A stretch of DNA of 64,000 bases from Ruditapes philippinarum. Its lineage: Eukaryota. Location of the stretch: NCBI RefSeq assembly GCF_026571515.1, contig NW_026853862.1:1-64000 (forward strand). The letters run 5' to 3'. A program made the translations under genes and the position numbers. Below the pieces are notes generated by a model that was given only the letters and a program-made list of their open reading frames with translations, was not told the DNA's origin and made no database searches. Positions 15,997 to 44,612 of the stretch are shown one piece after another. Numbering within the stretch: the first letter of the stretch is position 1; each line of letters begins with the position of its first letter.

Positions 15997-16158
15997 AGTA
16001 ATATAGGTTATTACGCTTCTCCCCCACCCTAAAAAAAAAAAATATCATCCCGTTATACCCCCAAATTGAAAAGTACAGAAATGCTTAAATCATGATAATT
16101 ATAGTACCCGCCAAAAAAAAAAAAATTTTTATCCCCGGCGGGACTCGAACCCGCGACC
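15997..16158 (+). repeat. Polinton left terminal inverted repeat
   Basis: Reverse complement of 31733-31895; differences are mainly homopolymer lengths and a few small indels. Confidence 0.93.
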
Positions 16159-16199
16159 TCTAAACCCGAAAAAATTATATTAATAAAAAGTAAAAAAAA

Positions 16200-16846
16200 C
16201 TATATAATTTCCAAAACACAACTAATTGTTAATCCATTGTTGTTTATTTTCTGACCTTTCTCATCACAAACGCTTATACTTAATTCAGAAATATCACCAT
16301 GTGTCAATTGTTTGTATTGTGGATTACTAAAATTAATATGAACAATATCACCGAATGGTTTATTTTCAACGGGAACAACACAAAGAATATTACTAGGAGC
16401 ACCATCAAAGAAATTGTAAGAACTATTTATCTGCTCAAGATGAACATATAGTTGTTTATAAGGTGCAAAATCTATTGTTCTTTCACCGTAGTGCGTTTCA
16501 TTAGCAGTAAATCCTTTCTTATTTTTTAAACCCTAATATTTGTTTTTAAACCTTTACTTATATTCAAATTATCTGAAGTAATTAAAGAGGCAATACCATT
16601 TGTTTCATTTACAGTTAATGTAATATTATAATTGTCAAATATATCTACTATTTGTTGAAAACTGTAATAACCATTTGTAATCTTGTTAGGACTATCAAAA
16701 TACTTTGTATATATTCATCAATTAAATTATACCAACCTATAGTATAAGTAAAAACTCTTTAATCCGATTCTCTTATTTCCACATTTGTTATCTATATATT
16801 GTAGCAAATTTATAGTGTTTTCAATGTTTGAAATTGTTTGATACAT
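16200..16846 (-). pseudogene. Minor capsid (penton-like) protein, frameshifted as assembled
   Basis: Pieced translation MYQTISNIENTINL...GWYN...ITNGYYSFQQIVDIF...VNETNGIASL...PYKQLYVHLEQINSSYNFFDGAPSNILCVVPVENKPFGDIVHINFSNPQYKQLTHGDISELSISVCDEKGQKINNNGLTISCVLEII* fits the single jelly-roll minor capsid pattern of Polintons. Confidence 0.7.
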
Positions 16847-16862
16847 TTTTTAATGAATAAAA

Positions 16863-18220
16863 ATGACAGTACATAATTTCAAATACAACAAAGAAGTAGT
16901 TTATAATACAGGAGGAATATACCTTTAAAAACCTATAAATATAATAAAACAATCCGTTATTATTTCATCAGATAAATAAAAGTTTTAATGCGGATTTCCC
17001 AAATATATTTGAAAATTACCTATTACCAAAAATATCATCAAATGAAATAGTTAATAGATGGAATGCAGACTGGTTATCGTTTTTGGCAAAATCAATTAAA
17101 CTTTGCTATATGGGTGTGCTACTATACAGGTTGTGGTATAGATGTTAACAACCATTTAAAAGCAGGAGGGTTGACCGGTTCACTATTCTTATTTCACGTT
17201 TACTACCAAACAAGAAGAATATTATTTGAATTATCTATTGCCCTACCACAAGATAAAAGTTGGAATGCATTTAACAACAGTTATGACCGTGGTGCTTACG
17301 AAAGAATATGTAAAGAGTTTAATGTAGACCCTCATTCAGATTGGAGACAAAAAATGTATCCGAGTGGTGATGGTTTAGGATTAGTTCACACAACTAGTCA
17401 CTCTGCATGGAAACGAACTGATTTTAGACATGATTATTCTTCAAAACATATTTCTAGCAGCACATCATCTGATTTAGATTTAACAAAAATGACATTCGGA
17501 CCAGAAGTTCCAGGTGGAAGAAAATGTGGTATTTCATCATGCGAATATCTTCCACCAAAGAAAATTCATATTGATTATATTCAACAAGAAGATGATGTTA
17601 AGCGATGTTTGGATCTAATCTTATTCTCGATACTGCAGAAGGTTCTCGCGAGAGCAGGCGGCGTTCACGGATTGAACGAACAATATAGAACTATGCTGGC
17701 TATTCTTGTTCCACCAAATCTCAAACAAGAACTGATTAACCGGAAACAGGAACAGCTTTTGATGCGCGCAAAAGAAAAGTTTCTTGCAATGTTGAACGAT
17801 GCTATCAATACCCTTAGATTTACAGTATCCTAAATAACCGATGATCAAAACCACATTCAAAATTGCAGAAGTAAAGTGACTATTTTACGGAATTGGCTTT
17901 GTACATGTTCCTCCTCAATCCTGGAATAAAATTGGAGAAATACAAACTCTAATAATAAAATTAAACAAAATGATATCAAAAAGCTCGGATTGAATAATGA
18001 TGTTAATATTCAACCAATTCCAACAATTATACATACAGAAATTAAAGGAACGCCAACAAAGAAATCTTTACCAGAACCTAAAGAAATAGCTAAATCTTTA
18101 GTTAAAGTGTCAGATGTAATAGAAAAAAATATATCAATAGAACACGAAGATAAAAGAGCAGCATTAATCGTTGGTAGTATAGTAATAGGTATTATTACAT
18201 TTTACTTTTTACGAATATAA
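16863..18220 (+). pseudogene. Polinton hypothetical protein with C-terminal transmembrane segment, frameshifted as assembled
   Basis: ATG at 16863, core ORF 17063-17833 (FWQNQLNFAIW...FHVYYQTRRILFEL...AYERICKEFNV...DWRQK) and tail ORF 17990-18220 (HEDKRAALIVGSIVIGIITFYFLRI). Confidence 0.6.
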
Positions 18221-19513
18221 TTATTAGCAGTTGCATACAACATTCCGACAACAAGAACAACTACAGCCCATAAATGTTCACCAAACCAGGATACAACTTT
18301 ACCCGCGGAAGAAAGCAACCAAGAAACAATAGCACCGATAATACCGGGCAATGCTTCTGCAGCTTTACCAGCTAGAGTAGCTAACAGTTTACCAAGATTT
18401 GATAATTGTTTTTTTATCCAGTCTTTTACACCACTTCCATCTTTTGGAGGAGGCTTAGGTGTTGTAGTTCCACCACCGGTAGTAGGAATTAAAGTCTCAA
18501 CAATAACACCAATAATCATTCCAAAAGCAGTTAAAACACTAACAATTGTAATTCCTTGTTCTCTAAATAATGTTTTTATTCTCTGAGCTAATGTAGTGTC
18601 TTCTTTTAATACTTTATTTATTGTTTCCTTTATCCTATTTACCTGACTACGTAATTTATCTCTATAACATTAATTACTTCCAGTCTTGCACTTTTTTTTC
18701 AAACTCCAAATCTCTTATTCGACTACTTATCCTTTCTCTATTTGGAATTCATCATTATCTGATTTGGCTTGTTCTAATTTATGTTTTTCTTTTTTCTATG
18801 TCTTTATTTGTTTCATTCAATTTAGTCAATTCATTTGCAATCTCTTCTTTTACAGTAGTCATTGCTTTGAGGACACCATCCATTTCTCTCTTTGTCATAT
18901 CTGTTTGTGTTTCTTGTTCGTCAGTAAATGATGTTTCTATTACTTTCACTGCAGTTTCAGCTGCATTAGGTAAATCAGTCATTTCTATATTATCAACATT
19001 AGGTAGATCATCTTTCACCTTTTGCAAGCTTTTAGCCGCTTGTGCTGATAATCGTTTTAGTTGTAGATCTATAATCAGGTAAGCTTAATAAGTCTCTAAT
19101 TTTATTTTGCTCCACCACTACCAATTCTACTCGACAAAGAACCCAAGTTTATAAAACTACCACCTTTTTTGGTAGTAATTTGAATATCTATATCACCTAA
19201 CTTTAAAAATAGTGTTTTATTATCAGGACCAAGTTCAAAGTTTGAATAATCAATAAATACTGGGTCTAACCCATACTTTTTCTTTTATCAACTTGTAATA
19301 TTCTTTAACTACATATTGTTTCTGTTTTTACTATTAATTGTGTTCTTGTATCAACATCATCACCGATATCCTAACGCAATATGAGCACTTTGGTTTTGTA
19401 TAGTTCTATTAAATTCATAATCATCATCTACAATTAATTATTATCCTCATCATAGTCATCTTTATTATCAAACGCAGAATTATCAAATTTCAAATTCGCC
19501 TTGTCAAGCCCAT
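18202..19513 (-). pseudogene. Coiled-coil protein with hydrophobic/amphipathic C-terminal helices (putative membrane-active virion protein), frameshifted as assembled
   Basis: ATG at 19513, acidic N-terminus, coiled-coil ORF 18779-19027 and C-terminal ORF 18202-18519 (KDWIKKQLSNLGKLLATLAGKAAEALPGIIGAIVSWLLSSAGKVVSWFGEHLWAVVVLVVGMLY). Confidence 0.6.
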
Positions 19514-19560
19514 TTTAATGTCACTTAAAAAATATCCTTCAAAAATTGTCCCTTCTAAAA

Positions 19561-20873
19561 ATGTCGGCTTTTGGAGAAGAAAATTACTAACCCCGTACAC
19601 TGAAAATTCAATAAGAGAACCACGTGGTTATATCCCCACAGAGGAATTCGTCAGCAGTGTTGTTATAACCAATAATCATTTCAACTATTGACCAAAAATC
19701 AAGAACGACATCCACAGGTCGAGATTTCCTAATCTAAGTAGCAATCGCATTTATTGTTCCCGGATCAGTCAGATTAAGCATTTGAAATTTGAACGAAACT
19801 CTAACAAGATGTAAATGCAACAGTATATCATGAACATAGGGACCAGAGGCAGATAATTAAGAAAACAACAATTAGAATAAGTGGAGCAAAGTTATGTCTA
19901 TTGATGATAGCGATATTTACCATTGTTATATCGATTTATGGAAGTCTCCCCCTGAACGTTTAAATATGGCCTATCAAGGTATCGGTAAAAATAATATGTT
20001 AAAACATAGGATTGGTGCTGCAGATGCTTCATCAGACAAAGAAGACGAGGCTGTAGCAAAAGCATACAAGAACAGATTTTGCATCCCACTTGATTTTGAA
20101 CTATTAGAAACTCATATGCCATTTTATCAAGCTGGTCTTGGTGACAGACTCGAATATGAACTTACTTTCAATGATTATGAAAAAGTAATTAAATCAACAG
20201 ATGCTACTTCAAGTTATACAATCAAAAACATATGTTTGGAATTCGATATGGTGTCTGACCCAGAACTTGCAAGACAAATAAGACAACAGGTAGATGGTAA
20301 AATGGTTATTTTATATGACAGAATACTAAGACACAGAAAAATAACTAAAAATAAATCTGATACGCTTTGGAATATTAATCTAAATGTTCCTGCTAGAAAA
20401 GTATGAAAGGTATTCTAATGTTAATCGAAGACCCGGAAAGAACATCAACTGAAACTTATTACAATCCGAATATAACAAAGCTAGAAATGACAATAGAAGG
20501 CAGTCCCGAATCAACTCATACAGTCAAGGAATGAAATCTTATCAACAGTGGGATGAGATAAATAAATCCCTTGCTTTTAAATTCAAAACGAAATAAAGAA
20601 ACAAGTATGATTGTAAAAGATTTATGTTTCACTAGTACAAACATTAAGAAAATATCTAACAAACAATTATGCATTATGGTTAGATTTACGTTCAACGGAT
20701 GAGAAACACCATGGTCTTCCGGAGAAGAATGAAAAGTGCAATCAGAAGGGTATAACAAACAAATCGAGAAAGAAGCAGGAGCATGAACTACTAAATTTTA
20801 CTTTATATATTATACAAGATGCACAATTAGATTTTGAAGAGGGTAGATCTTAAAAAAGAAATTAGTGTATTGA
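19561..20873 (+). pseudogene. Major capsid protein (double jelly-roll, hexon-like), frameshifted as assembled
   Basis: Core ORF 19894-20406 (NRFCIPLDFELLETHMPFYQAGLGDRLEYELTFNDY...YTIKNICLEFDMV...WNINLNVPAR) continues out of frame with MKGILMLIEDP...YYNPNITKLEMTIEG and ends YIIQDAQLDFEEGR. Size (~430 codons) and position next to the ATPase are typical. Confidence 0.8.
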
Positions 20874-20916
20874 AGTCGATAAGTAGAATTATCTTTTTTT
20901 TTGCGAGTTATTAAAA

Positions 20917-21536
20917 ATGACTACGCAAAATACATCCCCACTGCTGAATTATTTGCGGTCAAAACGGTTGCGGAAAGACTGAATTCGTTTAGACTTACTG
21001 TGAAAATCGAATATGCGGGTGTATTAAATAATTGTTATACTTTGTCCAACATTCACTGGAGCAACAGCATCAGCAAAAATCGTGAGTGGTATTGGTGACG
21101 TCGGAAACCGCAAAATCAAAAAATTCTATAATCGTGCAAATCCGTATCCCTCAATGGTGAAGAGAAATTAACAAGAACTATTAAAATGATTCTTCAAAAA
21201 AGACGCTGGTTCTCCTACTTTAATACACTCATGTGATCGATGCAGTCGCTGACAAAAAGATAACGAGAAAAAAGATATGCTTTGGAAATGCTTTTAAAGA
21301 ACAATAGTAATCGCGAGTTAATACAAAGAACAATTCATCTCTTAACACCCAGATGTCCAGAACGAACCAAACAACCGTACCTGTTTTACACAAACCGCAC
21401 CAGAGATAGCTTTGAAAATGTCTACAAATGATGTCATTCCACATCGAAGAAAGGCAAAGAATAAAAAAAGGAGACAGCATCGTAAATTATTCTTGAAAAC
21501 TGACCACCATACTAAAATTTATGGGTAGTTGATTAA
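20917..21536 (+). pseudogene. A32/FtsK-like genome packaging ATPase, heavily frameshifted as assembled
   Basis: Walker A ICGQNGCGKT at 20951-20980 directly downstream of the MCP gene, with a degenerate Walker B-like region near 21225-21250. Confidence 0.75.
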
Positions 21537-21552
21537 GTTATTTTTTATTAAT

Positions 21553-21860
21553 CTAATGCTATTAGTAATGCTTTAGAAATGTTTTAGTAATGCTTTAGGG
21601 CAATGCTTTAGTAATGCTAAAATCATATAAAATAAAAATAAAATTTTTACTTAAGTATGCTTAAGTAATGGCTTTAGTAATGCTATAGTAATGCTTAAGT
21701 AATGCTGAAAGTAATGCTACTAGTAATCGCTATAGGTTTTTACATAATGTTTTTTAAGTAATCGCTTTAGTAAATGCTATAGTAATGCTATAGTAATGGC
21801 TTTAGTAATGCTTAAGTAATGCTTTTAGTAATGCTTTAGTATGCTTTAGCCAATGGCTTA
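21553..21860. repeat. Internal 11-bp tandem repeat array (AGTAATGCTWW) in two blocks
   Basis: About 20 degenerate copies of AGTAATGCTTT/AGTAATGCTAT/AGTAATGCTTA, separated by an AT-rich spacer at ~21621-21650. Confidence 0.88.
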
Positions 21861-21896
21861 GATTTTTAATATTACTTAAAATAGAATAAAAATAAA

Positions 21897-22950
21897 ATGA
21901 TACCCTGAAATACTTCAAATACTAACAATTATAAACAACACCTGCAGCTTATTCGAGTAGTTCGCAAACTATTCGCGTATTTAATTATTATAAAATAAAA
22001 AAAATCTTAAAAATATACCTAATTGAAAATGATGCTCGAAAAAATACTCAAGAAAACCATACATGTTGATGAAGAATAATGAATTAGTATGAAATGAAAC
22101 TTGATAGATAGTGCATCAAATGTTATTGCTGGTGGAGGAAGTAAGACAACTATCTTGAAAAGAATACCAAATGTCAGGACATTGATACAATTGACAACCA
22201 GAACAAATAAATAAACCTATACTCGCAGATATGAAGGCTAGATTAGGTAGGAAGTAGTGACTAGACATTGGGAAAACTCTTTTATTATTTATATGTTATG
22301 GGTGTATCAAAATATGGTTAATGTTGTGGATCCCCCAAAATTAATACAAGATTTTAGAAGAAGATCCATTTGTAAATAATGCTCTGAATAGTTCATGTTG
22401 TAAACTTTATTATAATACGGAATGTATCTTGCTCCTTTTACTGGCTATGTTAACAACAGCAAAACATATTGATTTTAATAAACCTCCTGATGAAATTACT
22501 ACAGATAATGAATTAGAAAATATTACTATAAAAAAATGACGAGTGAAAAAGTTGAAATTATTATGACCGGATGAAAAAGAAAAAACTAAAGAAAAAACGA
22601 AAAACCAAAAAGAGTATCTGCAGGTAAAAGAATTGCAGAAGCTAAAAAATAAAAGCAGAATTAAAAAGAAAAGAAATAGGAAAATATTGATAAAGAAAAT
22701 AAACAATCTAAATCCACAGGAATAACAAAGATGATGATGATGATGAAGTTAAAAAAGTTAAAGAAGTTTAAATACATACAAAAATTATATACCTTTATGT
22801 CTAATTGGAGTTGGATTGGGAATATATATTTATAAGTCTTAACCTATTATAAAACATCAACATGTGATACAAAAGCAACCTGTTCTACAAAAAAAAGAAA
22901 TTGAGTCAAAAGAAAATAGTATAGGAAGTTGGTAAAAAAAAATTGTTTAA
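21897..22950 (+). pseudogene. Cluster of small Polinton hypothetical genes, heavily frameshifted as assembled
   Basis: TAAAATG-type starts at 21897 and 22536. Fragments include VVDPPKLIQD/EEDPFVNNALNSSCCKLYY and a Lys-rich KTKNQKRVSAGKRIAEAKK followed by hydrophobic YIPLCLIGVGLGIYIYK. Confidence 0.45.
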
Positions 22951-22965
22951 ATTTAATATATAAAA

Positions 22966-23211
22966 ATGGCGACACAAATTGATGGGAAAACAAATAGCGA
23001 ACATGTTATATCATGCTGGAGTGGAAACTGTATTAACAATTGGGTATTCAGAACTAGGAAGAAAACTATTGAAAAAACGCAGCACCAAAAGTAGATTTTA
23101 ATATGGGTGATATTGGAATGTTATCTATTGATATATTACTCGCAATGGCAAAACAAAAGGATATGTTGGTTAAGCCAGGGTATTATACCTAGCAGATATT
23201 AGATGAAGTAA
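22966..23211 (+). pseudogene. Small Polinton hypothetical protein (~80 aa), frameshifted as assembled
   Basis: MATQIDGKT/IANMLYHAGVETVLTIGYSELGRKLLK...PKVDFNMGDIGMLSIDILLAMA/KDMLVK... Confidence 0.55.
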
Positions 23212-23236
23212 TTATTTTATTTTATTTATTTCAAAA

Positions 23237-23670
23237 ATGGCTAAGTGCAGTAATATGATGATTTGGGTGCAGCGGGTTAATGCTTTACGCCTTTTCGGGG
23301 TAGTAATTATTTGTTTTCGCATATGGTAAAAATATGATATAGAGAGAAAAAGACAATGATAAACGCGATGGAAAAATTATCCAAGAAGAACAACTGCATG
23401 GAAATGAAAAGAGAACAGAACAGATTAGATTTTTATTAATGAAACAAATGAAAAAGGAACGTCATGCTACGGAAGAATTTGATAATGCTGATACAGCATG
23501 AAAGAATATTATTATATTACTGGTAAAACAATTACCGGCTTTACCTCCTAAAACCCGTATTAAGTGATTTCTACACTCCGTCAGAAGACGCAGAAAAAAT
23601 AGAGAGATTGCATTTATTATTGGTGGTATGGCATTAACATAACTGGTTTCTTGTATATAAAATTAAGTAA
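23237..23670 (+). pseudogene. Small Polinton protein with hydrophobic N- and C-termini, frameshifted as assembled
   Basis: Fragments GSNYLFSHM, MKKERHATEEFDNADTA, MKEYYYITGKTIT/LPALPP, VLSDFYTPSED and REIAFIIGGMALT. Confidence 0.55.
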
Positions 23671-26600
23671 AATAACCATAAGGTAAAGTATCTATTATCC
23701 ATTATCACATATATATCTTTTATCATCAAAAGTAGATAAACCTATTTTAAATCGATTCATTTAAATATATATTTATGTTTTTTATGTACTAAATTATTCA
23801 TTTTTTTATGAATTACTTTTTTCTTTAATAAACAATCTTCATATGATTCAGTATTAAATTCTTTTTTAGTTGTTTTATTAACACCTTTTGCAGTACATTT
23901 TGAATATAACATTAGAATCTTCTAAATATTCAAAACTATACATTTTACTTCTTATTCCAATGAAATTTGTCATTACATTCCTCTCCTAATTCATCTTTAA
24001 ATTTTCCAAAATTCAACTTTTTTATTTTTATTTGAAAACAATGGATGCTCCTTAGGATAATTAGACAAGTATCTAAATTTTCATTTATTTTTCTAAATCA
24101 GAATATAAATCTTCTGTATACTATATATTTAATACCATGCTGTCAGTATTCTTGATATAAAAGTTCATTATTTGGAAAATACTTTTCAATTGTGTCATAA
24201 TAAAACTTGTACATTACTAATTTAGAATAATCTAAAAACACACATTCCTAAATAAATAGGTTTTAGTAAAGTACATTGATTTATAATTTAATAACACTGC
24301 TTTAAAATTATTATTAAAATCTATAATTATCTTTGAAAATTATCGTTTAGAAGCTAATCGTTTTAAGTCTTCGGGTTTATTTATTAATTCAACTATACAT
24401 CTATTAGAAATATTTTCCAAAGTTTTTCCATAGAAAGAATTATTAATTAATTTCCAGAAATCTTTTTCAAAATCATTTGTTGCTTTTGCTTCTCAATCAA
24501 TATATGGTTTAACCAAGCTTTATGATTAAAGGATATTATACTATGAATCTTTGATACTTTTATTCCAAGATATATGTAATATTTTAGAATATCATAATGT
24601 ACAATATACTCTTTTTTATCATGAAGATCTAATATTAATTTTTCAACTTTTCCTAATTTATTATTATTTTGTTTTAAAGAAATCTCTTTGAATAATCTGA
24701 TATTCATTTTCATTAATTTTTCTTGATAAAGGCATAGTAGGAAACTTTCTTAATTTAATTTTTGTTATTTTATCATATTCTAAATCTACTTTAAAAATCA
24801 TTCCAACATCTTCATTACATTTATCTAAATAATATTTATTTCCTGATTTTCTACTTCTTCCCATTTAAAATTTTTATAAGGTAATTTTGCTGATAATCAC
24901 ACACCCATATAAATTATTTGCATCGGTATACCATAAATAATTAGGTTTATCTATTTTCTCATTTTTATTTGTATATTTATTAAAAGCTTTAACATATCTT
25001 GAACCTAATACTCCTGAAAATCCTCCTCTTGTTCCTCTTCAATCATAATCTTTCATATCTTTGTCTGTTAACAAATCTAATTCAATACCAGTATACTTTA
25101 ATCCTGCATTCCATGATAAACCAGGAGCAGAATAACAATAAGCTGGATCTATTTCATAATGTTTTAAACATATATCTCTAAAATTTTCAAATACATCTGC
25201 TAATATTAAAACATCAAGTTTCTGATATATCATTAAGTAATCTTCAAATGTTTTACAATATTTATTAAATATCTTTTTACCATGATTATATTCTTTTTCA
25301 GAAATATCTTTTTGATATAATATAGAATAAAATTCTTTTTTATCAGGAAAATTTTCTAGTTTTAATTTATCAAAAGAATCAAAATAATCATAAGGAAATA
25401 TTCCTTTAAAACTTCTTTCATTATTTTCAATATATTTTAAATCTTCAAATAAAGTATCATCCGATAATTCCCTTTTAAGTATTTTATATTTATCATCTTC
25501 TAATGTTTTTGATAAATTATCTATACTACTTAGTAAAAATCTCATACTATCTTTAAAAAACTAACTTAAAATATTTATCTCCGAATGTTATTGATATATA
25601 ATTTTCACTATCCTTTGGTAAAACTTTTACTTTATTATATTCAGTTTCATGTTTTAATAGTTCTTCTGTTAGGAAATGGAAATCATACCCACTTCCATTA
25701 TGAAAAAAGATTGGAAATTGTTTCCCATCTCTAGATTCTTTACTATTACAACTGGAACATGAAATTCCTCTAAATTCACCTGATAAATGATCATGTTCTA
25801 TTATCTTTTCCTTTCTTTCTAATTTCTTTTTACACATATAACAACAATCAGAAGTATTATATAGTTCTTCTTTTTCCTTTTTAAAATTTTTTCTGCATGA
25901 TAATAAGCCCACTTGATTTATCATTATACTTTAAACATGTTTTTATAAAATCTTCTTCGGCATTTTCACTAGGTGCATAGTTAATATTTTTATTCGGTAT
26001 GATATCCGGATAATCAGAAACTAATTGTAAATTATATGAAACTACTTTCTGTTGTTGTAAATTTATTGTATTATCTTTAAATGATAGTTTGATATTTTCT
26101 CTTTTTATTTTATTTCGTAGATTATCACTAATTTCGCTAATATCTTTTTTAATTTTTACTTTATTATTTTCACAATATTTTTCTTTTTCATATTCTGATA
26201 TTTCTATATGTCTACCGTCCTTCAATCCATTTATCAAAAATGTTGTCTATTAATTTGTTCAAAATATTTTTTTAATACAATTTTCTTTAATTTTATCCAA
26301 ATATATTTTAGTTCTTTCATCAGATATTTTATTATTAACATAATTATGATAAATTCTTTTAGCTTCTTTTTTAGATATTTTCTTCTTCTTTCATTATTTT
26401 ACCGATAATAATATTCTTTACTTTAGAATTAACATTATGAGATTTACTTTTTATTTTTAATTTATTTATTTGTTTTCGTAGGTCTACGTCAATATAACTT
26501 AATTTTATATTAATCGCTTCAAAGTCTGCATATCCGACAAATGGTAGTTTTAATTTAAAATGATGATTTTCAAATTTACATTTACTTCCTTCTGGTGGCA

Positions 26601-27589
26601 TTATAAATTTAAACGGTTCATTTTTTTGCAATCTTTCATATGTTTTTCTAAAGCTTTTTCAGTAGTATATGAAGCAGTAATACAATTTCTACAATGATAT
26701 CTTTTATTATGATTATGATAAGATAAGCATTAAAATCTTTAATTAAGCAATAATGTTTTTTGTCATTTAGAGTGACATGTAATAAATCTATAACATATTT
26801 TCTATCTTTAAATTTACTTATGTACATTGGATAAATATCACGTAAATTTTTTTCTTGTTGTGGTTTTTTAAAATCTTTATTTTCAGGATCTAAAAGTTCC
26901 TTTTCAATTCCGAATACATTAATAGCTACATTTTCATTTTGTTTTTCAAATGTTCCAATTGAATCTATACTTACTGGGAATTTAATATTTTCCATATTAA
27001 TATGATCTAGAAAAGGTTTATAAATTGATACTCTTGCTGGGTTTTTATTCATTTTTTTAAATATATCTGAATATTTTTTTTATCTTCAGGTTTCTCTTTT
27101 AATTTATATAGCATTCCAGCAATTACACTATAAGCAAAACAGTGATTATCATTGTTTTGAATATTTAATAAACTATTGAATTTTATTCCTAGATCAAAAT
27201 AAGAAGATCCATTTAGACTTCTTACTCTTACAACTTTAACTTCCGTATTTTCTATTTCATTAAATATTAATCCAGATTCTTTTCCCTGATGTTCTTCTTC
27301 CCATACTTTATACTTTTCAATAATAGAATTATATACTTCATTAAATTCATTTTGAGCATATGAAGTTTTATAAATCCGCTATTATAATGTCTCTCTATTT
27401 TTTCATCCATTGCTATAGGCTTTGAATAAATAGTTTTATTATTAGATTAAATTTAACATTAGGAAATGATGAAACTAATCTTTTAATATCTGGTTTAATA
27501 TTTCTAAAATAATTATTTATATTAATACCACTTTTATTAATAACTTCCTTAACATAGTTTTTATTGCTACCGGATTTTTTGAATCCCAT
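23663..27589 (-). pseudogene. Protein-primed family B DNA polymerase (pPolB), frameshifted as assembled
   Basis: Motifs in order: ExoI GYADFEA; EndoVII-like Zn motif CYMC...EHDHLSGEFRGISCSSCN; ExoII FHNGSGYDFHFL; KGIFPYDYFDS; ExoIII YQKLDVLILADVFENFR; GTRGG; YTDANNLYG; KLINNSFYGKTLEN; disrupted YxDTDS near 24140-24160; C-terminal LSTFDDKRY...TLPYGY. Confidence 0.93.
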
Positions 27590-27614
27590 TTTATTAGAAA
27601 ACAATTTGAATAAG

Positions 27615-27833
27615 CTATAATTTTTTATCGTGATAATAATTAGGATTTCTTGTCATAAATTCTTGAAAAGCCTGTTTATATTTTTCTTTGTTTTTTTGAT
27701 AATGTTTTTGTTTCATAGGTTTATTACATTGTATACATGCAGATTTAACTCCCATCGCAAAACCTTTTGCTTTATGATATTCGCTTAGTAATTTGTATTC
27801 ATTACATTTTGTACAGATTTTTCCTTCTGTCAT
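27615..27833 (-). CDS. Small Zn-binding protein (CxxC...CxxC, basic tail), 72 aa
   Basis: MTEGKICTKCNEYKLLSEYHK...SACIQCNK...; intact ORF with TAAAAAATG start, divergent from the integrase. Confidence 0.7.
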   Translation of the reverse strand: MTEGKICTKCNEYKLLSEYHKAKGFAMGVKSACIQCNKPMKQKHYQKNKEKYKQAFQEFMTRNPNYYHDKKL

Positions 27834-27849
27834 TTTTTATGTTTTAAAA

Positions 27850-28801
27850 ATGGAGCATCCGAAAATATATTGTTTACGTTGTAAAAAACATACCGATAAT
27901 GATTCAGTAGAGCAAGTAACAACAACTAATAATAGACAAATGCTAAAAGCTAAATGTTCTGAATGCGGATCTAAAAAAAGTAGATTTATAGCTGGTTTAA
28001 CAAATAAATTAGCAGATGAATTACATCATAGAGTTATAAAAAAAATTCCTAAAAGACGCATTTATGTTCATTCAGTAGATCAGACATGGGCAGTTGATTT
28101 GGCAGATGTGCAACAATATTCGAAACAAAATAAACACTATAAATATTTATTAGCAGTTATAGATGTTTTTAGTAAATACGGTTGGCTAATTCCCTTAAAA
28201 AATAAAACAGGAGTAACGGTAAGTGAAGCATTTAAAACATTATTTGAAGAAAGAAAACCAATGTATATTTGGTCAGATAAAGGTTCTGAATTTTATAACC
28301 GGCAAGTAAAAGAATTGTTAAAAGAGAATAACATAAAGTTATATTCAACTGAGAATGAAGAAAAATCTAGTGTAGTAGAACGCTGGATAGGAACAATGAA
28401 ACAACGTATGTTTAAATATTTTACTGCTCACGAAACTAATAAATATTATGATGTATTAGATGATTTAGTTAAAGATTATAACAATACAGTTCATTCTTCT
28501 ATTAAAATGACACCTGTTGAAGCAATTAAAAAAGAGAATGAATCAACAGTGTATGAACATTTATATCCGGAAAAAGAAGAAGTAATTAAAAAACCTAAAT
28601 TCAAAGTTGGAGATAGAGTAAGAATTGCAAAAATGAAAGGTAAATTTGAAAAAGGTTATACAAACCCGTTGGAGAAGAGAAATATTTGTAATTGATGAAG
28701 TTTTAAATACAGATCCTGTTACTTATAAAATAAAAGATTTAAAAGATGAAGAAATTAAAGGAAGTTTTTATGAACAAGAATTACAGAATACTGATTTTTA
28801 G
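27850..28801 (+). CDS. Retroviral-type (rve) DDE integrase with N-terminal Zn ribbon; one frameshift near 28665
   Basis: MEHPKIYCLRCKK...AKCSECG Zn ribbon; catalytic WAVDLAD, WSDKGSEF and ENEEKSSVVER; YNNTVHSSIKMTP; PKFKVGDRVRI. The C-terminus continues in another frame as EIFVIDEVLNTDPVTYKIKDLKDEEIKGSFYEQELQNTDF* (TAG 28799-28801). Confidence 0.92.
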
Positions 28802-28810
28802 AATATAAAA

Positions 28811-30201
28811 ATGAGTATCTTTGGAATCAAAAAACATAAAAGAAACAACTCTGAACTTGGTAATAAAATGAATATACCATTAGATATGAGCGGTAACTCT
28901 ATAATTAATTTAGGAAATCCAGAAAAACCAAGTGATGCTGTTAGCAAAAGATTTGTTTTTAGGAAAATTAAAAGTGTAATAGACGACTATGAATTGGAAG
29001 ATATAAAAAACATTAAAGACTTACTTCAAACAGAAAAGTCAGACATTGATCAACTTTCTGAAAGTATTAAAAATAATGAAGAAGCAATAATCACACTGCA
29101 CGGTCAACTCCAGAAAGAAATGGCAATCTTATCAGAATCACTTAGTAAAACAGATGATGAAATAAAAGTTGCATTAAGGCAAAACATTCTTTTAATCGCA
29201 AACCGAATTGATAACATAAAGAATAGCATGATTAAACACAACGAACTTAAGAACAAATTTGCTGAAGCTGAGAAAAAGCTACAAAATATGTATAAGTTAG
29301 AAATAAAAGAAGAAATAAAAACGTTAAAAGATGACTCAACGGAATTGTTTAATACATTTTCTGAAAAGTTTGATGAATTCAAAGCACAACTAGAACAATC
29401 TGCTTCACAAAGAAACGATGCTCAAGATGGAGAAATTAATAATTTAAAAGTTAAATTAAATCAAATGAAAGATTTGCTTACTAATAATCTGCAGAAAGAA
29501 ATTACCAGACTTGATGTGGATGTTAAGAAAAATGCAGATGATACTAGAGATGCAGTTAACAAAATAGATACAAAAATAGAAAGTCTCGAAGAGGTTCAAA
29601 CAAAACGTGTTAATGATTTAGGTAAAACAATACTTGATACAGTCTCAGACCTTTCAGAGGCGAAAAGGGCGATTTCTGATATTATTAACAACAAAATATA
29701 TCATGTTCCTTTATTACATATGCGGAATGATTCTACTCTAGAAGTTAAAGTTTTACCTACTACTTACGAAATCGGTAAAAATAATCGTTATATTAAAACT
29801 CATAATCTATTTAAGTTTTTTAATTATCATTATTCACCTGTTGTAAATTATAATGATTATATAGAAGAGGAACTTGATATGAATATAGGTGACTTTAGAA
29901 ACGTGAGTGGTTTTACAACTAAAAAAGATGGAACATACTACATTAATATAAAACTTATAATAAAGGGTAAAAGCGACTTTTTATTGATATGGCAGGAAAA
30001 TTACAGATCTGAAAACGAAGACAGGACTCATGAAGTACTTTTAAAAAGATCAACAGTACTGATGAAAAATTTTTTGAAGACGTTATAAAGCAACAGTTTT
30101 TAAAGAATACATCAATTGCAATTATTCCAGTCTCGGTTACTGACCAATTATTTACTATTGAAAAAGGCAGCTACATTAGATTTACATATTCTTGGGAATA
30201 A
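28811..30201 (+). CDS. Putative fibre/receptor-binding protein (neck motif, long coiled coil, beta-rich head); ORF 28811-30088 plus frameshifted tail to 30201
   Basis: N-terminal LDMSGNSIINLGNPEKPSDAVSKRFV fibre-neck-like motif, ~240 aa of heptad coiled coil and a C-terminal GFTTKKDGTYYINIKL. The alternative frame continues KINSTDEKFFEDVIKQ...GSYIRFTYSWE*. Confidence 0.7.
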
Positions 30202-30228
30202 ATTATATTCAAAAAATTACCTTTAAAA

Positions 30229-30872
30229 ATGAAGACACCAACAGCTCCGGATCCTTTATATCCAGAATTACCAGTAGAAGATGGACAAAATTATAGATTA
30301 CAGAAGATATCAGAAATAGAAAAAAAATTAATTAATGAGAGGGATACTCGTAAATCATTATACAAGAAATATAAACGCGGAATTAATATAACTGACGGTG
30401 TTGATACTGGTTTAATATCAACATCCGTTATTTTAGCCGGTACTAGCTTAGCTATTCCTTTTATGTTACCTTTAGGAATTGCAGCCGCTGTATGCGGAAG
30501 TTTAGGAGTATGTGTTAAATTTATTAGACGTAAATTACAATCAAAAACAAAAAAAAACATTATGAGATTAAAACTATTGCTGATAGTAAATTAAATAGTA
30601 TAAAAGATTTGACTTCAAAAGCTTTAACAGACGGACAAATATCTGAAAATGAATTTAAATTGATTTTAGATGAATTAGATAAATATAATAAATTGAAAGA
30701 TAGCATACATTCAAAACAAACAGGATTGAGTGAGACAGAAAGAAAAAAGTTAATAGAAAAGGGAAAAGCACAGGCTTTAAACGAGTTAAAAAAAAAAGGT
30801 AAATGTATAATTTTATTCACTAAAGTTACAATAGTAAATGATCCTCCACCTATTTATTCAAGCATAAACTAA
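30229..30872 (+). CDS. Polinton membrane protein with central hydrophobic hairpin and ESCRT late-domain-like motifs; one frameshift in the A-run near 30550
   Basis: ORFs 30229-30594 and 30609-30872 join across an A10 run: MKTPTAPDPLYPELP...YRLQKISE...LYKKYKR...(hydrophobic)...KHYEIKTIADSKLNSIKDLTSKALTDGQISENEFKLILDE...NDPPPIYSSIN*. Confidence 0.75.
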
Positions 30873-30893
30873 TATTTTAATTCCTTGTACAAT

Positions 30894-30907
30894 AAAAAAC
30901 TGCAAAA
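30894..30907 (-). terminator. Putative Pol III oligo-T terminator of the structured RNA
   Basis: Minus strand TTTTGCAGTTTTTT (T4 at 30907-30904, T6 at 30899-30894) immediately after the terminal stem. It overlaps a plus-strand AATAAA (30891-30896) of the convergent gene. Confidence 0.6.
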
Positions 30908-31276
30908 TCCTTCAACCGCCTAATCCTTTAGCCTTAGGACTGAGTTATTCTTTATTTGTGTGCACCCTAGCCCTAAGACTTGTTGGTTTCGGCACTTTTC
31001 TTAAGCTATTCACCTGGAAGCTATCCTGCTCGGGTTATTACTTCGCTTGTTAGGTCACCTTTAACCCCGTTTGATAACCTCTCGAAACCTAAACCAGAGA
31101 TCATCAGAGGTAAGGCAACCATTCTGTAAATCCATACTTGGTAAAGAATTCTTTTCAGTGCACACAAACCCAAGTATGAATATACAGGTAGCGAACTTTT
31201 CCGAACACTATCTTCCCTAGCAGCGAATAGAGTCATACACAGTGCCTACACCCAGACTAGAACGGCATTCAGACAT
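30900..31276 (-). ncRNA. Candidate ~375-nt highly structured Polinton-encoded ncRNA (probable Pol III transcript)
   Basis: Nested helices found by eye: 31266-31254/30926-30915, 31246-31241/30996-30991, 31230-31222/31014-31006, 31216-31209/31023-31016, 31207-31201/31033-31027, 31195-31190/31047-31042. Hairpins: 31187-31170/31141-31124, 31120-31113/31060-31053 with 31106-31096/31082-31072, and 30980-30969/30941-30930. About 15 G.U pairs, valid only on the minus strand; GC content is above the flanks. Confidence 0.75.
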
Positions 31277-31294
31277 TAATGTAATATGAAATCT

Positions 31295-31310
31295 ACCTAT
31301 ATATATAGGT
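31295..31310 (-). promoter_or_regulatory. Palindromic TATA element (ACCTATATATATAGGT) about 25-30 nt upstream of the structured RNA
   Basis: Perfect 16-bp palindrome containing TATATATATA (31298-31307), at U6-like spacing from the first paired nucleotides. Confidence 0.55.
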
Positions 31311-31732
31311 GTATTTTTCTTCCGACAAATTGACTGGTTTTAAAATTGCATAATTTACAATATATTTCTCGTTCATACCAAGATGTTATTTAGACATGAT
31401 AATAAAACATAAAATTTAAATATATATTTATATGTATATGTGTATATGTGAATTTTACATTGTTTTAATTTGTTAAAGGGAGGTAATGTTATCGGAAAAC
31501 AGTATTAAAAATAGATATTATGTTTAAGTTATCAGACCATAAAGTTAACCACAAAGAGCAGTCAGTCGTTTCAATGTGTTTACATAAAGTACATTAATAA
31601 ACCACAGGCATTTATAAATTTAAATGTAGTATTTTAAGTGCATAGATTTAAACGTTAGTGAATTTTCGTTTTATAAAATTTTAATGTTTTCAAGGGATCC
31701 CTCTAGAGGTTAATTTTTTTTTATTTTTTATG

Positions 31733-31895
31733 GGTCGATGGTTCGAGTCCCGCCGGGGATAAAATTTTTTTTTAGGGCGGGTACTATAATCATGATTTAA
31801 GCATTTCTGTACTTTTCAATTTGGGGGTATAACGGGATGATATTTTTTTTTTTTTTTTTTTAGGGTGGGGGAGAAGCGTAATAACCTATATTACT
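31733..31895 (-). repeat. Polinton right terminal inverted repeat
   Basis: Reverse complement of 15997-16158, ending ...CCTATATTACT and followed by the TSD AGTAAA. Confidence 0.93.
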
Positions 31896-32894
31896 AGTAA
31901 AGTCAAAAGATACAAATGAATCAGACAGTTGTGAAACAAGTGGTAAAACTGAAGATGATATGGATGACAAAGGCTGTGATAATACAAAAAGTGATATGAT
32001 TTGAGATGGTGTTGACACCAGTAAAGGAGAAGTTGATAATGATGGGAAAAATATATCAATGTGAAACCAAAAAAAAAAAAAAAACAACAGAAAATGTGGT
32101 AGAGTTCACAGATACGGAAATTAGTCTGCATCATGTGAAAGGAGATAAGTAAGTTTTATTTTCTGATCATTTTACCTCATATATATGCGATTCAACGCAT
32201 TTTTGACCCTCCCCCTTTGTTTAAAAAAGTGATCTTTTTTTTCCTTCATCGCCAAAGAAATTTTGGACTTGTTAGAGGCTAAAAATGGCCTTAGGTCAAT
32301 CGTAAGGTAACGAGCAACCAACACTGAAAAGCCTTTGACTTAATCTCAATCCATTGAAAAGTGGCAGCACTCTGAAATCAGTTTTGATGGGAAAGATAAG
32401 CGCAAAATAATGATTTTTGGCAATTTTGAGATGCCCCTTCATGGCAATGGTAACCCTTCGTTACCCTTACAAAGGCTATGGTCCAGTTAACATTTGTGCC
32501 ATGTTTGGTCAGCATTAAATCATTTTTCACAGTTTCATAGCAATTTGAACTTGTAACAGGAGGCTTTTCAATGAAAACAGCCATTTTTCACAAAATGATT
32601 ATGAAGTTATGGGTTTACGACATTTTGTTAACCTCTTTTGGATGTAGTTGATTATATTTTATCCAATTAAGATATGCACAGATCTGTTAAACGTTTCTGC
32701 TATTATGAGTTTGTTCAAAGACCACAAACCTTCAAGAAAATTTAAGAAGATTGGTACCAAGCTTGGTTTTGAGTTATCCTGATCCAGTTCAGCAGTGATA
32801 TTTTATTTAAGTTCTAACTTATTTCAACTAAGCTTTTTTATGAGGAAGATATATTAATTAAAAAAAATGCACTTAGAAGTAATAATGATTAAGA

Positions 32895-33062
32895 GTCTCT
32901 GTGGCTGAGCAATCAAGTTAGTCAACTTTAAGTCACTTGCCCCTCACTACTGTGGGTTTAAATTCCATTATACGAGGAAGCTATCTAGGTAGCCTGCAAA
33001 AGGTTGGTTGTTTTACTCAGGTGCCCACTTGTGTTGTATTGTGTGACATAAAATCCAACAAA
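32895..33062 (+). mobile_element. Degenerate tRNA-derived SINE
   Basis: GTGGCTGAGC...CACTTGCCCCTCAC...GAGGAAGCTATC...TACTCAGGTGCCC, same family as 39443. Confidence 0.55.
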
Positions 33063-40270: not shown

Positions 40271-42068
40271 TTATTCTTGTAACACTTTGAAAACTTTAAC
40301 TTTATTTGGCATCCCAACTAACAATCCCTTGGTATAAGCGCAATATGCAAGACTGCTTGGTTTATCTAATCCATCATTTTTATCTATTAAGATCTTCACT
40401 TTAGTGAGGTATCTCGATAATTGATGGATATTATCAGAAGCAGCTCCACACACATATACTGATCCATAATCATCAATAGCAAGTTGACGAGGCATTTTCA
40501 AATCATCATCCATGTAAATGGCCTTCTTCTTACCAGCAAATGTCAAACAGGTCACGGTGTGTTTGTTCGGATCAGAAACATATATCATAGTATTGTCAGG
40601 ACTGACAATCAAGCGCCAAGGAGTAATAAACAGTTCCTGACCATTATCATCTTGTTTAAATGTTTTCTGTATTGTTCCTGTCATACTTAGAATCATGACA
40701 CTACCTGGATACAAATATGAAACCACAAGACAGTGATTCCTGTAGGCAATACCAGTGCAAAGACCTTTTCCTGGCATCTCGGTGATACTTGAAACTTTCA
40801 TATCTCCTGAAAATGTTATCAGTCTGATTAATCTTTCATTTGGAAATGTTACGGCAACTTTAAAGTCTGAAACTTTTGTAATGTCCCACGGACTTGTATA
40901 AAATTCTATGTTATCCATACAATTTGCCTGTGACTTTTCTATTTTGTATATGACTAGTCTACACTTTTTCCAATCTGATATCAAAAGTGTATGTTCAGAT
41001 AAGACAAGTAAAGAGGATATGACGTCAATGTAACAGTTGATATCAAAATTGAAAGCAACTTTTGTTTCTATTTTTTCAAATGTGAAAAATCTTGTTTCAC
41101 TCTCTAGAGATTGTTCTGTTGGTTGAATGTTGGAGGTTGTGTGTTTGTAGCACTGAATGCAGACTTGTCGAATTTGTTCAGTATTTTGTTGTAAGGGTTT
41201 CACACATTTGTTTTGCTAACTGTAATTTGATAAAAAGTTCACAGTTTTGACCTAATTTTTTGGCTTGGTCTAGATCAGAAGTAAGAACCTTTAAATTCTT
41301 TACCAAATATAAATGTTCTGACCTTAGAACCTTAAAGTTTGTGTTTGTGCTAGCAACCTGTTCTTTCATATCTGTTTCAGCTTTTGTTATCTTGTTTTTA
41401 AATTTTCTATCCTTTTCGGATAACTCTTCAACTAGTTCCAACCTTTCTTTCTTCAACCTTTCAATGGTCTCTTTCATCTTCATATTAAAATCTTCAATGA
41501 GATCTTGATGCAGTTGTTTAAAGGCTTTAAATAGTTTATCTTTGTGCTCCTTGCATGTTTCAGTTGCCTTTTCTTCTTGTTTATCAACCACTTCACTTTT
41601 GACATTCAAAAGCTTTTCTGTGTCTTTTATATCAGCATACAATTTATCCAAGTTCTGTTGAAGGTCTTTAAAGTCTTTACTTTTTTGTATGCCCGAAGCA
41701 AGTGTTGATAAATGGTTCACGTCTCTACAGTTTACATGCTCATTATCCTTGCATATTTGGCAGGCTTCTTTGCTACACACAGAACAGTAAAACTTGATCA
41801 GCTGTTGAGGATGTGTGGAACACTTCTCAAAATAGAACGATTGTGGCATCTTTTTACGATCTTGAATTATGTGAGTTTGTGTTTCTCTCTTATGATATTT
41901 TAGGCAGGTCACACATTTATATTCTACACAATCCACACAGAAAGCTACAGCTGTTGAATAGCCATCACCATGGTTTGCACATTCTTCACAGTACATTTCC
42001 TTAACTCTGTCATCGTGTTGTGTTACTGAAGCACTGTCATTCGCAATCATTTTATTTTGTTCAGTCAT
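40271..42068 (-). pseudogene. RING-less TRIM-like gene, copy B, with a single +1 frameshift (possibly a sequencing error)
   Basis: ORFs 41178-42068 (B-boxes CEEC...FCVDCVEYKCVTC..YH, CSTH...YCSVC...C..C...H, coiled coil) and 40271-41203 (NHL-like blades) join if one G is removed at GGG 41195-41197. Confidence 0.85.
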
Positions 42069-42818
42069 TTTAGGAATATCTTCATTGTATCGACTTTTTT
42101 GTTATTATATCCTTTCCCTTGAAGTAAAGTAAATGTAATAGAGTTTGAATGTTTTTCTTTAAGACATTGTCATGATTATTTTAAGGTTACTTTATAGGCC
42201 ATATATATAATGATAAGTGATCATATGAGTGACCAAAGTTTTTGTTTAATTTTACCATACGACAGTTTGATAAGCCAGTATCAGTTTGATAGTGATTGTA
42301 AATTGTTATCAATGAAATGTCAGTTCATTCATGTCATAAAAACTTCTACCTTTGACTTTCTTAATTATACATACCTCTTAGGCGGTTATTATATAAATAA
42401 ATAATAATAGCTCTAATGTCCTGATAAAAGAAGTAAATCAGATATATTACTTTTTATTTAGTTTTTGATATATTTTCCCCATTATTCATATAGTTAATTG
42501 TATACATAGTAAATTTAATTTAGATTTACTGATATTTCAAGATTTCATGTTGCATGACTAAGTTGTTATCACATTGAACTAGTAATCCAACGACTGCTTG
42601 GTCGCATTGGTTCGACAAGCTGTTGCTTCCTTGATAAAAAAAATGAAATATTTACTGAATACGGGTTGTTTCCTAGAACGGATTCAAGAATACAGAGTTT
42701 GTATTAAAGTTGATAGCTTCCTGGGCAATCATACTTAATAAGGACACTCATTCCATCCTAATGAGAGGAGTATTTAAATTTAGTTGTTGATGATTCTTTG
42801 TGTAATAGTTGCTATTGT

Positions 42819-44612
42819 TTATTCTAGTAACACATTGAAAACTTTAATTTTGTTATACATTCCCACAAACAATCTCTTGGTATTTGGGCAGTAGGCCACA
42901 CTCTTTGGTTGATCTAATCCATCACTTTTATCTATCAAGATCTTCACTTTTGTGAGGTCATTTGATAATTGATGGATATTTCCAGAGTGAATACCACACA
43001 CATATAGTGATCCATATTCATCAACAGCAAGTTGTTGAGGTCTTTTCAGTTGATCATTCTTGTAGACAGCCTTCACCTTACCAGCAAAGGTCAAACATGT
43101 TACAGTGTGTTTTTCCCAGCCAGAAACATAAATCACAGTATTGTCAGGACTGACAGTTAAGTACCAAGGTTCAATAAACAGATTTCGACCATTATCATCT
43201 TTGTCAAATGTTTTCACAATTTCACCTGACATACTTAGAATCTTAACACTAGCTGGATTCCAATATGAAACTACAAGATAGTTATTTTTGTAGGCAATAC
43301 CAGTACAAGGACCATTTCCTGGTATCTCTGTGATATTTAAAACTTTCATGTCTCCAAAGAATGTTATCAGTCTGATTATTCTTTCTTTTGGAAATGTTAC
43401 AGCAATTTTATAATCTGAAACCCTTATAATACCAAATGGATTTGTTTTAAAGTTCATGGAATCAATATAATTGGCTTGTGACATTCCTAGTTTGTATATG
43501 TCTAGGTAACACATTGCATAATCTGATACTAGAAGTGTATGTTCAGATAAAACAAGTAAAGAGGATATGACATCAATGTGACAGTTGATATCAAAATCAA
43601 AGACAACTCTTCTTTCTACATATGATGCATGTACCTTTGCAAATGTGAAAAATCTTCTTTCACTCACTAGAGATAGTTCTTTTGCTTGTATGTTAAAAGT
43701 TTCAATTTTGAAGCGCTGTATGTAGGCTTGTTGAATTTGTTTAATATTTCGGTGAATGTTTTCACACATTTGTTTTGTGAACTTCAATTTAATAAGAAGT
43801 TCACAGTTTTGACCTAGTTTTTGGTCCTCTTCTAGTTCAGCAATATGTGCCTTTAATTGTTTGACCAAATTTAAATGTTCTGACTTGAGAACCTTAAAAT
43901 CTTTGTTTGTGCTAACAACCTTCTCTTTAACATCATTTTCAGCTTTTGTAATTTGGTTTTTAAATTTTCTTTCGTTTTCAGATAACTCGTTAACTAGTTC
44001 TAACCCTTCTTTCTTCATTCTGGCAATTGTTTCTTCTATCTCCTTATCAAAAGCATCAATCACATCTTGATGTTGTTGTATGAAAATTTCTATTAGTTTC
44101 TCTCTATGCTCCTTAAATGCTTCAGTTGCCTCTTCCTCTTGTTTATCCACCACTTCACTTTTAGCATGCAACAGCTTTTCTGTGTCTTTTATTTCCTCTA
44201 ATAATCGATCCAAGTTCTGTTGAAGATCTTTTAAGTCATCACATTTTTGTATACCTGAAGCAAGGGTTGGTAAATGATTCACATCACCACATTTTACATG
44301 ATCATTATCTTTGCATTCTTGGCAGGCTTCTTTGCTACACTCAGAGCAGTAAAACTTGATCAACTGTAGAGGATGTGTGGAACACTTCTCAAAATAGAAA
44401 TCTTTTGGCATACTGTCACTATCTTGAATTTTGTGAGTTTTTGATTGTCTCTTATGATATTTTAGACAGGTCACACATTTATATTCCACACAATCCACAC
44501 AGAAAGCAATAGCGGGTGTAAAGCCATCACCATGATTTTCACATTCTTCACAGAACATTTCCTTCACTTCGTTAGATTCTTGTGATGATAATGCGCGGAC
44601 ATTAGCAGACAT
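42819..44612 (-). CDS. RING-less TRIM-like protein (B-box x2, coiled coil, NHL-like beta-propeller), 597 aa, copy C
   Basis: Intact single-exon ORF with B-box1 CEEC...FCVDCVEYKCVTCLKYH...H, B-box2 CSTH...YCSEC...CQEC...H, a coiled coil and propeller repeats (PWYLTVSPD...IYVS, PQQLAVDEYGSLYVCG, PKSVAYC...LFVG). Confidence 0.92.
   Translation of the reverse strand: MSANVRALSSQESNEVKEMFCEECENHGDGFTPAIAFCVDCVEYKCVTCLKYHKRQSKTHKIQDSDSMPKDFYFEKCSTHPLQLIKFYCSECSKEACQECKDNDHVKCGDVNHLPTLASGIQKCDDLKDLQQNLDRLLEEIKDTEKLLHAKSEVVDKQEEEATEAFKEHREKLIEIFIQQHQDVIDAFDKEIEETIARMKKEGLELVNELSENERKFKNQITKAENDVKEKVVSTNKDFKVLKSEHLNLVKQLKAHIAELEEDQKLGQNCELLIKLKFTKQMCENIHRNIKQIQQAYIQRFKIETFNIQAKELSLVSERRFFTFAKVHASYVERRVVFDFDINCHIDVISSLLVLSEHTLLVSDYAMCYLDIYKLGMSQANYIDSMNFKTNPFGIIRVSDYKIAVTFPKERIIRLITFFGDMKVLNITEIPGNGPCTGIAYKNNYLVVSYWNPASVKILSMSGEIVKTFDKDDNGRNLFIEPWYLTVSPDNTVIYVSGWEKHTVTCLTFAGKVKAVYKNDQLKRPQQLAVDEYGSLYVCGIHSGNIHQLSNDLTKVKILIDKSDGLDQPKSVAYCPNTKRLFVGMYNKIKVFNVLLE

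Follow-up and report, generated by a model that had tools for sequence, protein, structure and literature searches.

The window analyzed here (64,000 nucleotides of Ruditapes philippinarum contig NW_026853862.1) harbors a decayed 15.9-kb Polinton/Maverick copy spanning positions 15997–31895. It has terminal inverted repeats (TIRs) at 15997–16174 (left) and 31717–31895 (right), a 6-bp target duplication on both sides (15991–15996 and 31896–31901), and open reading frames (ORFs) matching pieces of integrase (rve), protein-primed DNA polymerase (PolB; DNA_pol_B_2) and endonuclease VII (Endonuclease_7), which bears out the Polinton setting assigned in an earlier note on this DNA. The element sits inside a NEMF-like host gene, with an NFACT-R exon match at 15187–15381, and splits an exon of this gene (15187–15381, 15860–15996 and 31896–32148). 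A cluster of host B-box/coiled-coil/NHL (TRIM-like) genes surrounds the element (12386–13903, 40271–44612 and 59937–61730). The TIRs carry a tRNA T-arm/B-box-like word (31738–31760 and 16135–16155), which is kept in most sister elements and could recruit TFIIIC; a weak YrlA match was also obtained in the sister element L029.

Near the right end, a 190-aa membrane-type Polinton gene on the plus strand (30229–30800), with 411 database relatives and frameshifted in an A-run near 30550 in the window copy, bounds a cargo slot and lies tail to tail with the structured region described below (30900–31276, minus strand; 620–990 bases inside the Polinton right end). The G+C content of this region is 43%, versus 28% in the element, in line with its earlier description as a GC-enriched island in AT-rich surroundings.

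Fold of the minus strand and predicted contact between two hairpin loops

When folded as RNA, the minus strand of 30900–31276 reached −135 kcal/mol (z −5.18), and none of 100 dinucleotide shuffles was as stable. This contrasted with the plus strand folded as RNA (z −0.54), for which 28 of 100 shuffles were as good. With DNA parameters, z was −1.67 for the minus strand (5 of 100 shuffles as good) and 0.92 for the plus strand, while the copy L002 folded with a z of about −7.6 (25 shuffles). The strand-specific fold previously claimed for the minus strand was thus confirmed, and all the helices named at that time (closing stem, rod, and the 18-bp, irregular and 12-bp hairpins) were found in the minimum-energy fold. 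Two details needed correction: all five rod helices are present, but the third has 5 bp rather than 8, and the richness in G.U pairs holds with 20 of 120 pairs instead of about 15. The longest uninterrupted helices measure 18, 15 and 11 bp.

In transcript order, the 5′ arm of the closing stem (31254–31266), which pairs with 30915–30926, is followed by the 5′ strand of a rod (31190–31252; 3′ strand at about 30986–31047), whose five helices, separated by purine-rich internal loops, amount to 36 bp plus four internal loops. Hairpin H1 (31124–31187) consists of an 18-bp stem, with one mismatch in the window copy, and a 28-nt loop (loop 1, 31142–31169). Hairpin H2 (31052–31120), irregular and 69 nt long, varies more than any other domain: indels occur in L003, L007, L008 and run X9, the last being a 12-nt deletion at its tip. 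Hairpin H3 (30930–30980) has a 12–15-bp stem and carries loop 2 (about 30945–30965). This is a real, element-borne and strand-specific RNA structure that was previously undescribed, and its fold energy together with its relative conservation makes it very probable that a structured non-coding RNA gene of about 370–380 nt exists at 30900–31276.

The architecture had been considered purely nested. However, when all perfect helices in the molecule were listed, the strongest one (−18.6 kcal/mol) was a 13-bp helix joining loop 1 of H1 (31157–31169) with loop 2 of H3 (30954–30966), continued by a second helix of 8 bp (30947–30954 with 31142–31149), all on the minus strand. The duplex between both loops was calculated at −20.0 kcal/mol, compared with −7.7 ± 2.3 kcal/mol for shuffled loops (2 of 5000 as good), and a perfect helix equally strong anywhere in the molecule was observed in 9 of 300 whole-molecule shuffles. 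Holding both loops unpaired cost only 4 kcal/mol, whereas forcing the loop–loop helix as a nested alternative cost 33 kcal/mol (−109 vs. −142), so the contact is best seen as a pseudoknot added to the nested fold. Because of this same penalty, the helix was rejected as an alternative switch state. An origin of the loop complementarity in the inverted repeats of a miniature inverted-repeat element (MITE) was also rejected, since H1 straddles one of them.

An intramolecular kissing contact between the H1 and H3 loops is accordingly modeled as likely, and the arm lengths (18 bp for H1, 12 bp for the kiss and 15 bp for H3), which together roughly equal the length of the rod, would fit a closed two-rod frame. 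The 13-bp helix contains the palindrome GUGCAC, which is present in both loops, so that pairing between molecules is also possible. An AAUAAA hexamer lies inside loop 2 (30951–30956, minus strand), 50 nt before the poly(A) site described below, and would be buried when the loops kiss.

Copies, conservation and the exchangeable slot

A search of the host genome with the RNA region yielded 12 matches, which corresponded to the window copy, seven near copies (91–99% identity), two 5′ halves of 75–77% identity and a 3′ fragment joined to a TIR; one near copy, split by an inserted repeat, was counted twice, and these host copy counts are lower bounds. Seven of the near copies end in a TIR, each with different flanks, and hence represent seven independent insertions in which the RNA keeps the same place, in line with the positional conservation named as a check in the earlier note. 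They are distributed over at least three Polinton backbones, one with a PolB only 70% identical and another with a different gene order. The 3′ flank of the RNA is constant among copies. Four sites distinguish the window copy from L002, and at two of them a pair is broken; all eight sequencing runs examined (see below) carry the alleles of other copies at those sites, where covered.

Several observations were made on individual copies. The sister element in G000:C9503 is a mosaic, with a right end 96% identical to that of the window, a PolB only 70% identical and inverted left genes, from which it follows that Polinton modules recombine freely. The two 5′ halves (L010, G000:C11028:13841-13993; L011, C4778:75826-75974) comprise 155 nt starting at the TATA box, belong to one duplicated region, and are truncated by other repeats with no Polinton around them; they point to an older subfamily of the structured RNA. 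Of nine near copies, five break off or are interrupted within about 25 nt of loop 2 (window 30945–30975), through a repeat insertion (L004), rearrangement joints (L008, L012) or contig ends (L005, L007), which reflects either a fragile site or an assembly effect.

With regard to selection, the compensatory covariation called for in the earlier note did not appear: double-sided changes were found in none of 128 pairs, the full-length copies being too close to each other for this test, and nine one-sided changes kept pairing. In L010, 10 of 14 transitions at paired sites keep pairing versus 50% expected (p = 0.09), and the proportion rises to 10 of 11 only if a poorly aligned stretch is left out; loop 1 is unchanged in this 77% relative. 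Comparison of the RNA with the upstream spacer in three diverged copies gave substitutions at 19/366 vs. 33/403 sites (p = 0.11), 9/325 vs. 27/407 (p = 0.016) and 2/371 vs. 16/407 (p = 0.0014), respectively. These sequence comparisons suggest, with moderate strength given an AT-rich spacer and common recombination, that the RNA is more conserved than the spacer in all three copies. An internal 71-codon ORF was discarded as protein-coding, as it shows no coding constraint (11 non-synonymous and 2 synonymous changes relative to L006).

The distribution of the RNA among sister elements was monitored by means of the 190-aa neighbor gene, a search with which retrieved 65 matches at 30 loci. Slot content was analyzed in 29 of them, L038 (the split RNA copy) being left out. 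The RNA was present downstream of the neighbor gene in 3 of the 29 sister elements. In the remaining ones the slot was either empty or filled with a 263-aa ORF or remnants of it, an additional ORF, a second structured island or spacers of other kinds. Slots devoid of the RNA were often found behind a neighbor gene 97–99% identical to that of the window. The RNA is therefore accessory cargo in an exchangeable slot near the Polinton right end, which is what speaks most strongly against an indispensable role in packaging or as an origin, including the essential function of the kind of a prohead RNA (pRNA) that had been suggested.

Regarding these other contents, the ORF of 263 aa found in L024, L030, L035 and L036 runs on the minus strand and matches DUF3102 weakly (E 0.011); L027, L033 and L034 have shortened forms of it and L040 a distant relative. 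Another ORF occupies L044, L045 and L050, and the slot of L037 is empty. A common non-coding spacer of about 300 nt with paired ACGCGT boxes, possibly an enhancer, was found in L025, L026, L028, L031, L032, L041 and L052, and it folds weakly (minus-strand z −3.0 to +0.2). In L029, positions 950–1430 of the locus (G000:C1974:25241-25721) are occupied by an island that is likewise G+C-rich and structured (z −6.8 and −3.6 for its two strands) but unrelated to the RNA of the window. It is known from four copies of 80–100% identity (including L135–L137) and has no match in Rfam. A 16-nt word in the island is identical to both ends of the RNA's closing stem joined together; kinship of the island with the RNA was rejected, as 40 of 300 shuffles score as well.

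The affiliation of the RNA to known families was also inspected. At the gathering cut-off, Rfam 15 (including SRP, 7SK, RNase P/MRP, HEARO, introns and ribozymes) gave no match in the window, with a best E value of 0.29 in the region, and was likewise negative in 20 sister loci, so the statement that the RNA belongs to no described family holds at this threshold. It also holds that it is neither a host RNA nor a passenger transposable element. A SINE or passenger repeat was rejected because the near copies all lie at Polinton ends, with only the one duplicated 155-nt fragment elsewhere (counts being lower bounds), and an rRNA origin because the similarity to host 18S was matched by 47 of 200 and 94 of 200 shuffles. 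Further candidates discarded were a hammerhead viroid-like RNA or retrozyme (one CUGAnGA without GAAA after its stem, and none on the plus strand), telomerase RNA (no TTAGGG template word on the folding strand) and a Fanzor/IscB omega RNA (absence of an ORF in the interval from the RNA to the TIR, a constant 3′ flank, and no RuvC family among the 14 element ORFs scanned).

Beyond the host genome, a protein search of viral contigs revealed no homologue, and three patterns produced 9, 27 and 1 matches therein, none of which was supported by BLAST, profile or reading. The pattern search gave no matches in metagenomes. The neighbor protein led to 11 metagenome loci, none with the RNA, many of them being too short or of a different gene order; the conservation expected in other molluscs and cnidarians was consequently not encountered among them. 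Prokaryote genomes gave no matches and phage records a 22-nt chance word. Homologues were thus found in the host genome only, among the viral contigs, metagenomes, prokaryote genomes and phages searched. The profile search covered part of the host genome with the 5′ half of the RNA, and weak host homologues may be missed.

Promoter-like elements, 3′ end and transcription

A TATA box (31298–31307, minus strand) precedes the fold and is kept in the 75–77% relatives L010 and L011. Its offset from 31276 equals that of the host U6 TATA box from the U6 start (about 31 nt before the start). Twenty-six nt after the TATA box there is an initiator-like CATT motif (31278–31281, minus strand), kept in L003, L006, L008, L010 and L011, which we interpret as a putative RNA polymerase II (Pol II) feature. 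No exact match to an A or B box was found in the RNA, only one-mismatch words that are not arranged A-then-B at the usual places, which speaks against the gene of the adenovirus VA type, transcribed by Pol III, that had been envisaged. When proximal sequence elements were compared, not even host U6 and U2 had a clear one in common, and none was seen at the matching offset here.

At the 3′ end (30894–30907, minus strand), a first U4 run (30904–30907) directly follows the closing stem, the chance of there being no internal U4 amounting to 0.23, which gives this feature little weight. It is followed by a poly(A) junction at 30900 and a U6 run (30894–30899), the latter also being the plus-strand AATAAA (30891–30896) that serves the convergent gene as poly(A) signal. 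The junction derives from one contig in one run (X4), which extends on the minus strand from 31764, within the TIR, to 30900 and ends in about 35 non-templated A, without U residues. This poly(A) tail runs counter to the non-polyadenylated RNA proposed before.

The stretch is contained in 20 of 24 public runs (12 studies), none of them recorded as RNA. Eight of these 20, chosen for containing the stretch and consisting of unstranded contigs, were examined, and the RNA region was covered in all eight. Run X5 shows splicing at the host GT donor at 32148 and so contains RNA; since it represents the uninterrupted, spliced NEMF-like form, the insertion is polymorphic or located in a paralogue. A contig of run X6 spans 30921–31292 with 25 loose letters at its 3′ end, 30 nt after AAUAAA. 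In seven of the eight runs, contigs continue upstream of the TATA box. The host intron at 32624–32926 had next to no cover in the four runs examined for it, a gap that proves nothing. The region is hence expressed in at least some runs, while plus-strand read-through or DNA could explain the coverage of runs. On the whole, we slightly favor transcription by Pol II with poly(A) addition over Pol III: we would give the former about an even chance and a type 3 Pol III gene a somewhat smaller one, and consider it rather improbable that the RNA is only part of a longer transcript.

Interpretation and comparison with known RNAs

The reading we prefer, offered tentatively and somewhat short of an even chance, is that of a TATA-driven accessory non-coding RNA of about 375 nt, folded into a closed two-rod frame, which might act as a decoy for host double-stranded RNA (dsRNA) sensors. 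Transcription would start near 31276–31281 and end at 30900–30904; H1 would fold back from the far junction and H3 would reach up from the near junction, so that the loops meet. The many G.U-rich helices, none longer than 18 bp, could then bind dsRNA-binding proteins of the PKR, ADAR, RLR or Dicer type, and given that a long perfect duplex is missing, bound sensors would not be switched on, as with adenovirus VA-I. The decoy function itself, argued by analogy and held with the same reserve, draws on the accessory terminal position, on the wobble-rich helices of limited length and on the VA-I precedent. The wobble-rich stems and pseudoknot of VA-I inhibit PKR (PMC6599070), and bivalves edit viral dsRNA with ADAR1 (PMC9044936).

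A bolder and unlikely extension is that the frame locks itself. Loop 2 would wrap around loop 1 by over a full turn, and H3 would then close behind it co-transcriptionally, leaving a topologically trapped, nuclease-resistant viral RNA, of a class undescribed in eukaryotic DNA viruses, with its poly(A) signal inside the lock. Polintons would, in this view, keep a terminal slot for interchangeable large structured RNAs (this RNA and the L029 island).

Among the alternatives, the one that survives best, although we consider it unlikely, is a cis-acting 3′-end switch in a longer, TIR-driven minus-strand transcript. Here, the kissing helix would hide AAUAAA and the closing stem would bring it near the cleavage site, thereby controlling how the transcript is polyadenylated, how stable it is or whether antisense transcription reads through into the convergent gene. 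The hexamer within loop 2, the X4 contig reaching from the TIR to its poly(A) end, the extension upstream of the TATA box in seven of eight runs and the fact that other slot cargoes are minus-strand ORFs all agree with this model; however, there is no upstream coding sequence to regulate, 370 nt far exceed what such a switch needs, and TATA and CATT, both kept in the 77% relative, lie right at the 5′ boundary of the fold.

Loop-to-loop pairing could instead take place between molecules, yielding dimers or rings as with phi29 pRNA or retroviral dimer signals; the RNA would then serve as a scaffold or assembly RNA during packaging or within viral factories. The 13 + 8 bp of loop complementarity, the palindrome shared by both loops and the position near a genome end would suit such a role, which we nevertheless regard as rather improbable: the RNA is absent from 26 of 29 sisters, several of them with 97–99% identical neighbor genes, and so cannot be essential, and the arm lengths fit an intramolecular contact.

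Somewhat less probable still is that the element has captured in its slot, without benefit to itself, a selfish or catalytic RNA resembling a ribozyme, an intron or a satellite RNA. Large ribozymes typically show complex multi-domain folds with long-range loop pairing, a feature shared by this RNA, whose G+C content is moreover unlike that of the element and whose presence is patchy; against this, no Rfam ribozyme or intron matched even at E 10, no hammerhead core occurs in order, free copies outside Polinton ends are limited to the one old duplicated fragment, and the RNA has its own TATA box.

Processing of H1 or H2 by Drosha/Dicer into viral microRNAs is very unlikely: H2, with 69 nt, has the size of a pre-miRNA, and VA RNAs yield mivaRNAs (PMC7589676), but both hairpins emerge from a tight three-way junction that leaves them no single-stranded flanks, and H2 is the domain that accumulates indels. 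Polintons are thought to replicate through single strands. A single-stranded DNA signal, namely an origin or packaging site used during strand-displacement replication, would take advantage of this and of the minus strand still folding best as DNA, and is slightly more remote yet, in view of a DNA z of only −1.67, the 20 G.U pairs, its dispensability in most sister elements, and the promoter and poly(A) evidence.

A literature search at the level of titles and abstracts found no published Polinton non-coding RNA gene. If the RNA is expressed as predicted, viral structured long non-coding RNAs would extend from adenoviruses to their endogenous invertebrate relatives, and a fixed terminal slot would emerge as the site where Polintons exchange accessory cassettes, RNA as well as protein. 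It would also provide a natural RNA of 375 nt with an unusually long loop–loop lock, small enough to be probed and solved, and a direct handle on how Polintons cope with invertebrate dsRNA immunity.

Like adenovirus VA RNA (PMC7589676, PMC6599070), the RNA described here is a non-coding RNA of a Polinton-related DNA virus, with 5′ and 3′ ends paired before a U4 run, wobble-rich helices below activating length and a loop-based pseudoknot. In contrast to VA RNA, it measures about 375 rather than about 160 nt, has an external TATA box, no A/B boxes and a poly(A) end (seen once), and carries a 13 + 8 bp kissing helix in place of a short pseudoknot. It is further distinguished by being accessory and exchangeable and by lacking sequence similarity to VA RNA; the GGGU and ACCC words of VA RNA do occur and can pair (31167–31174/31029–31036), but not in the best fold, and such 4-mers are expected by chance.

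The prohead RNA of phage phi29 is essential, has about 120–174 nt and interacts between molecules through 4-bp loop contacts. Both RNAs lie near a genome end together with a protein-primed PolB and display two complementary loops on separate hairpins; the Polinton RNA, by contrast, is missing from most sisters and its 13-bp contact is compatible with a frame formed within one molecule. Type 3 Pol III RNAs (U6, 7SK, RNase P/MRP) are similar in the TATA box at the U6 offset, the 330–370-nt size class and a terminal stem followed by U4. The Polinton RNA departs from them in having no Rfam match, no upstream element found in common with host U6 or U2 and a poly(A) junction without U residues, as well as in being virus-borne.

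Finally, polyadenylated viral long non-coding RNAs such as herpesvirus PAN are transcribed from a TATA promoter and have a 3′ region that is structured. The Polinton RNA resembles them in being presumably TATA-driven, polyadenylated (as seen once), non-coding and structured, and differs from them in that its internal loops are purine-rich rather than forming a U-rich ENE, and in that the whole molecule constitutes one compact fold.
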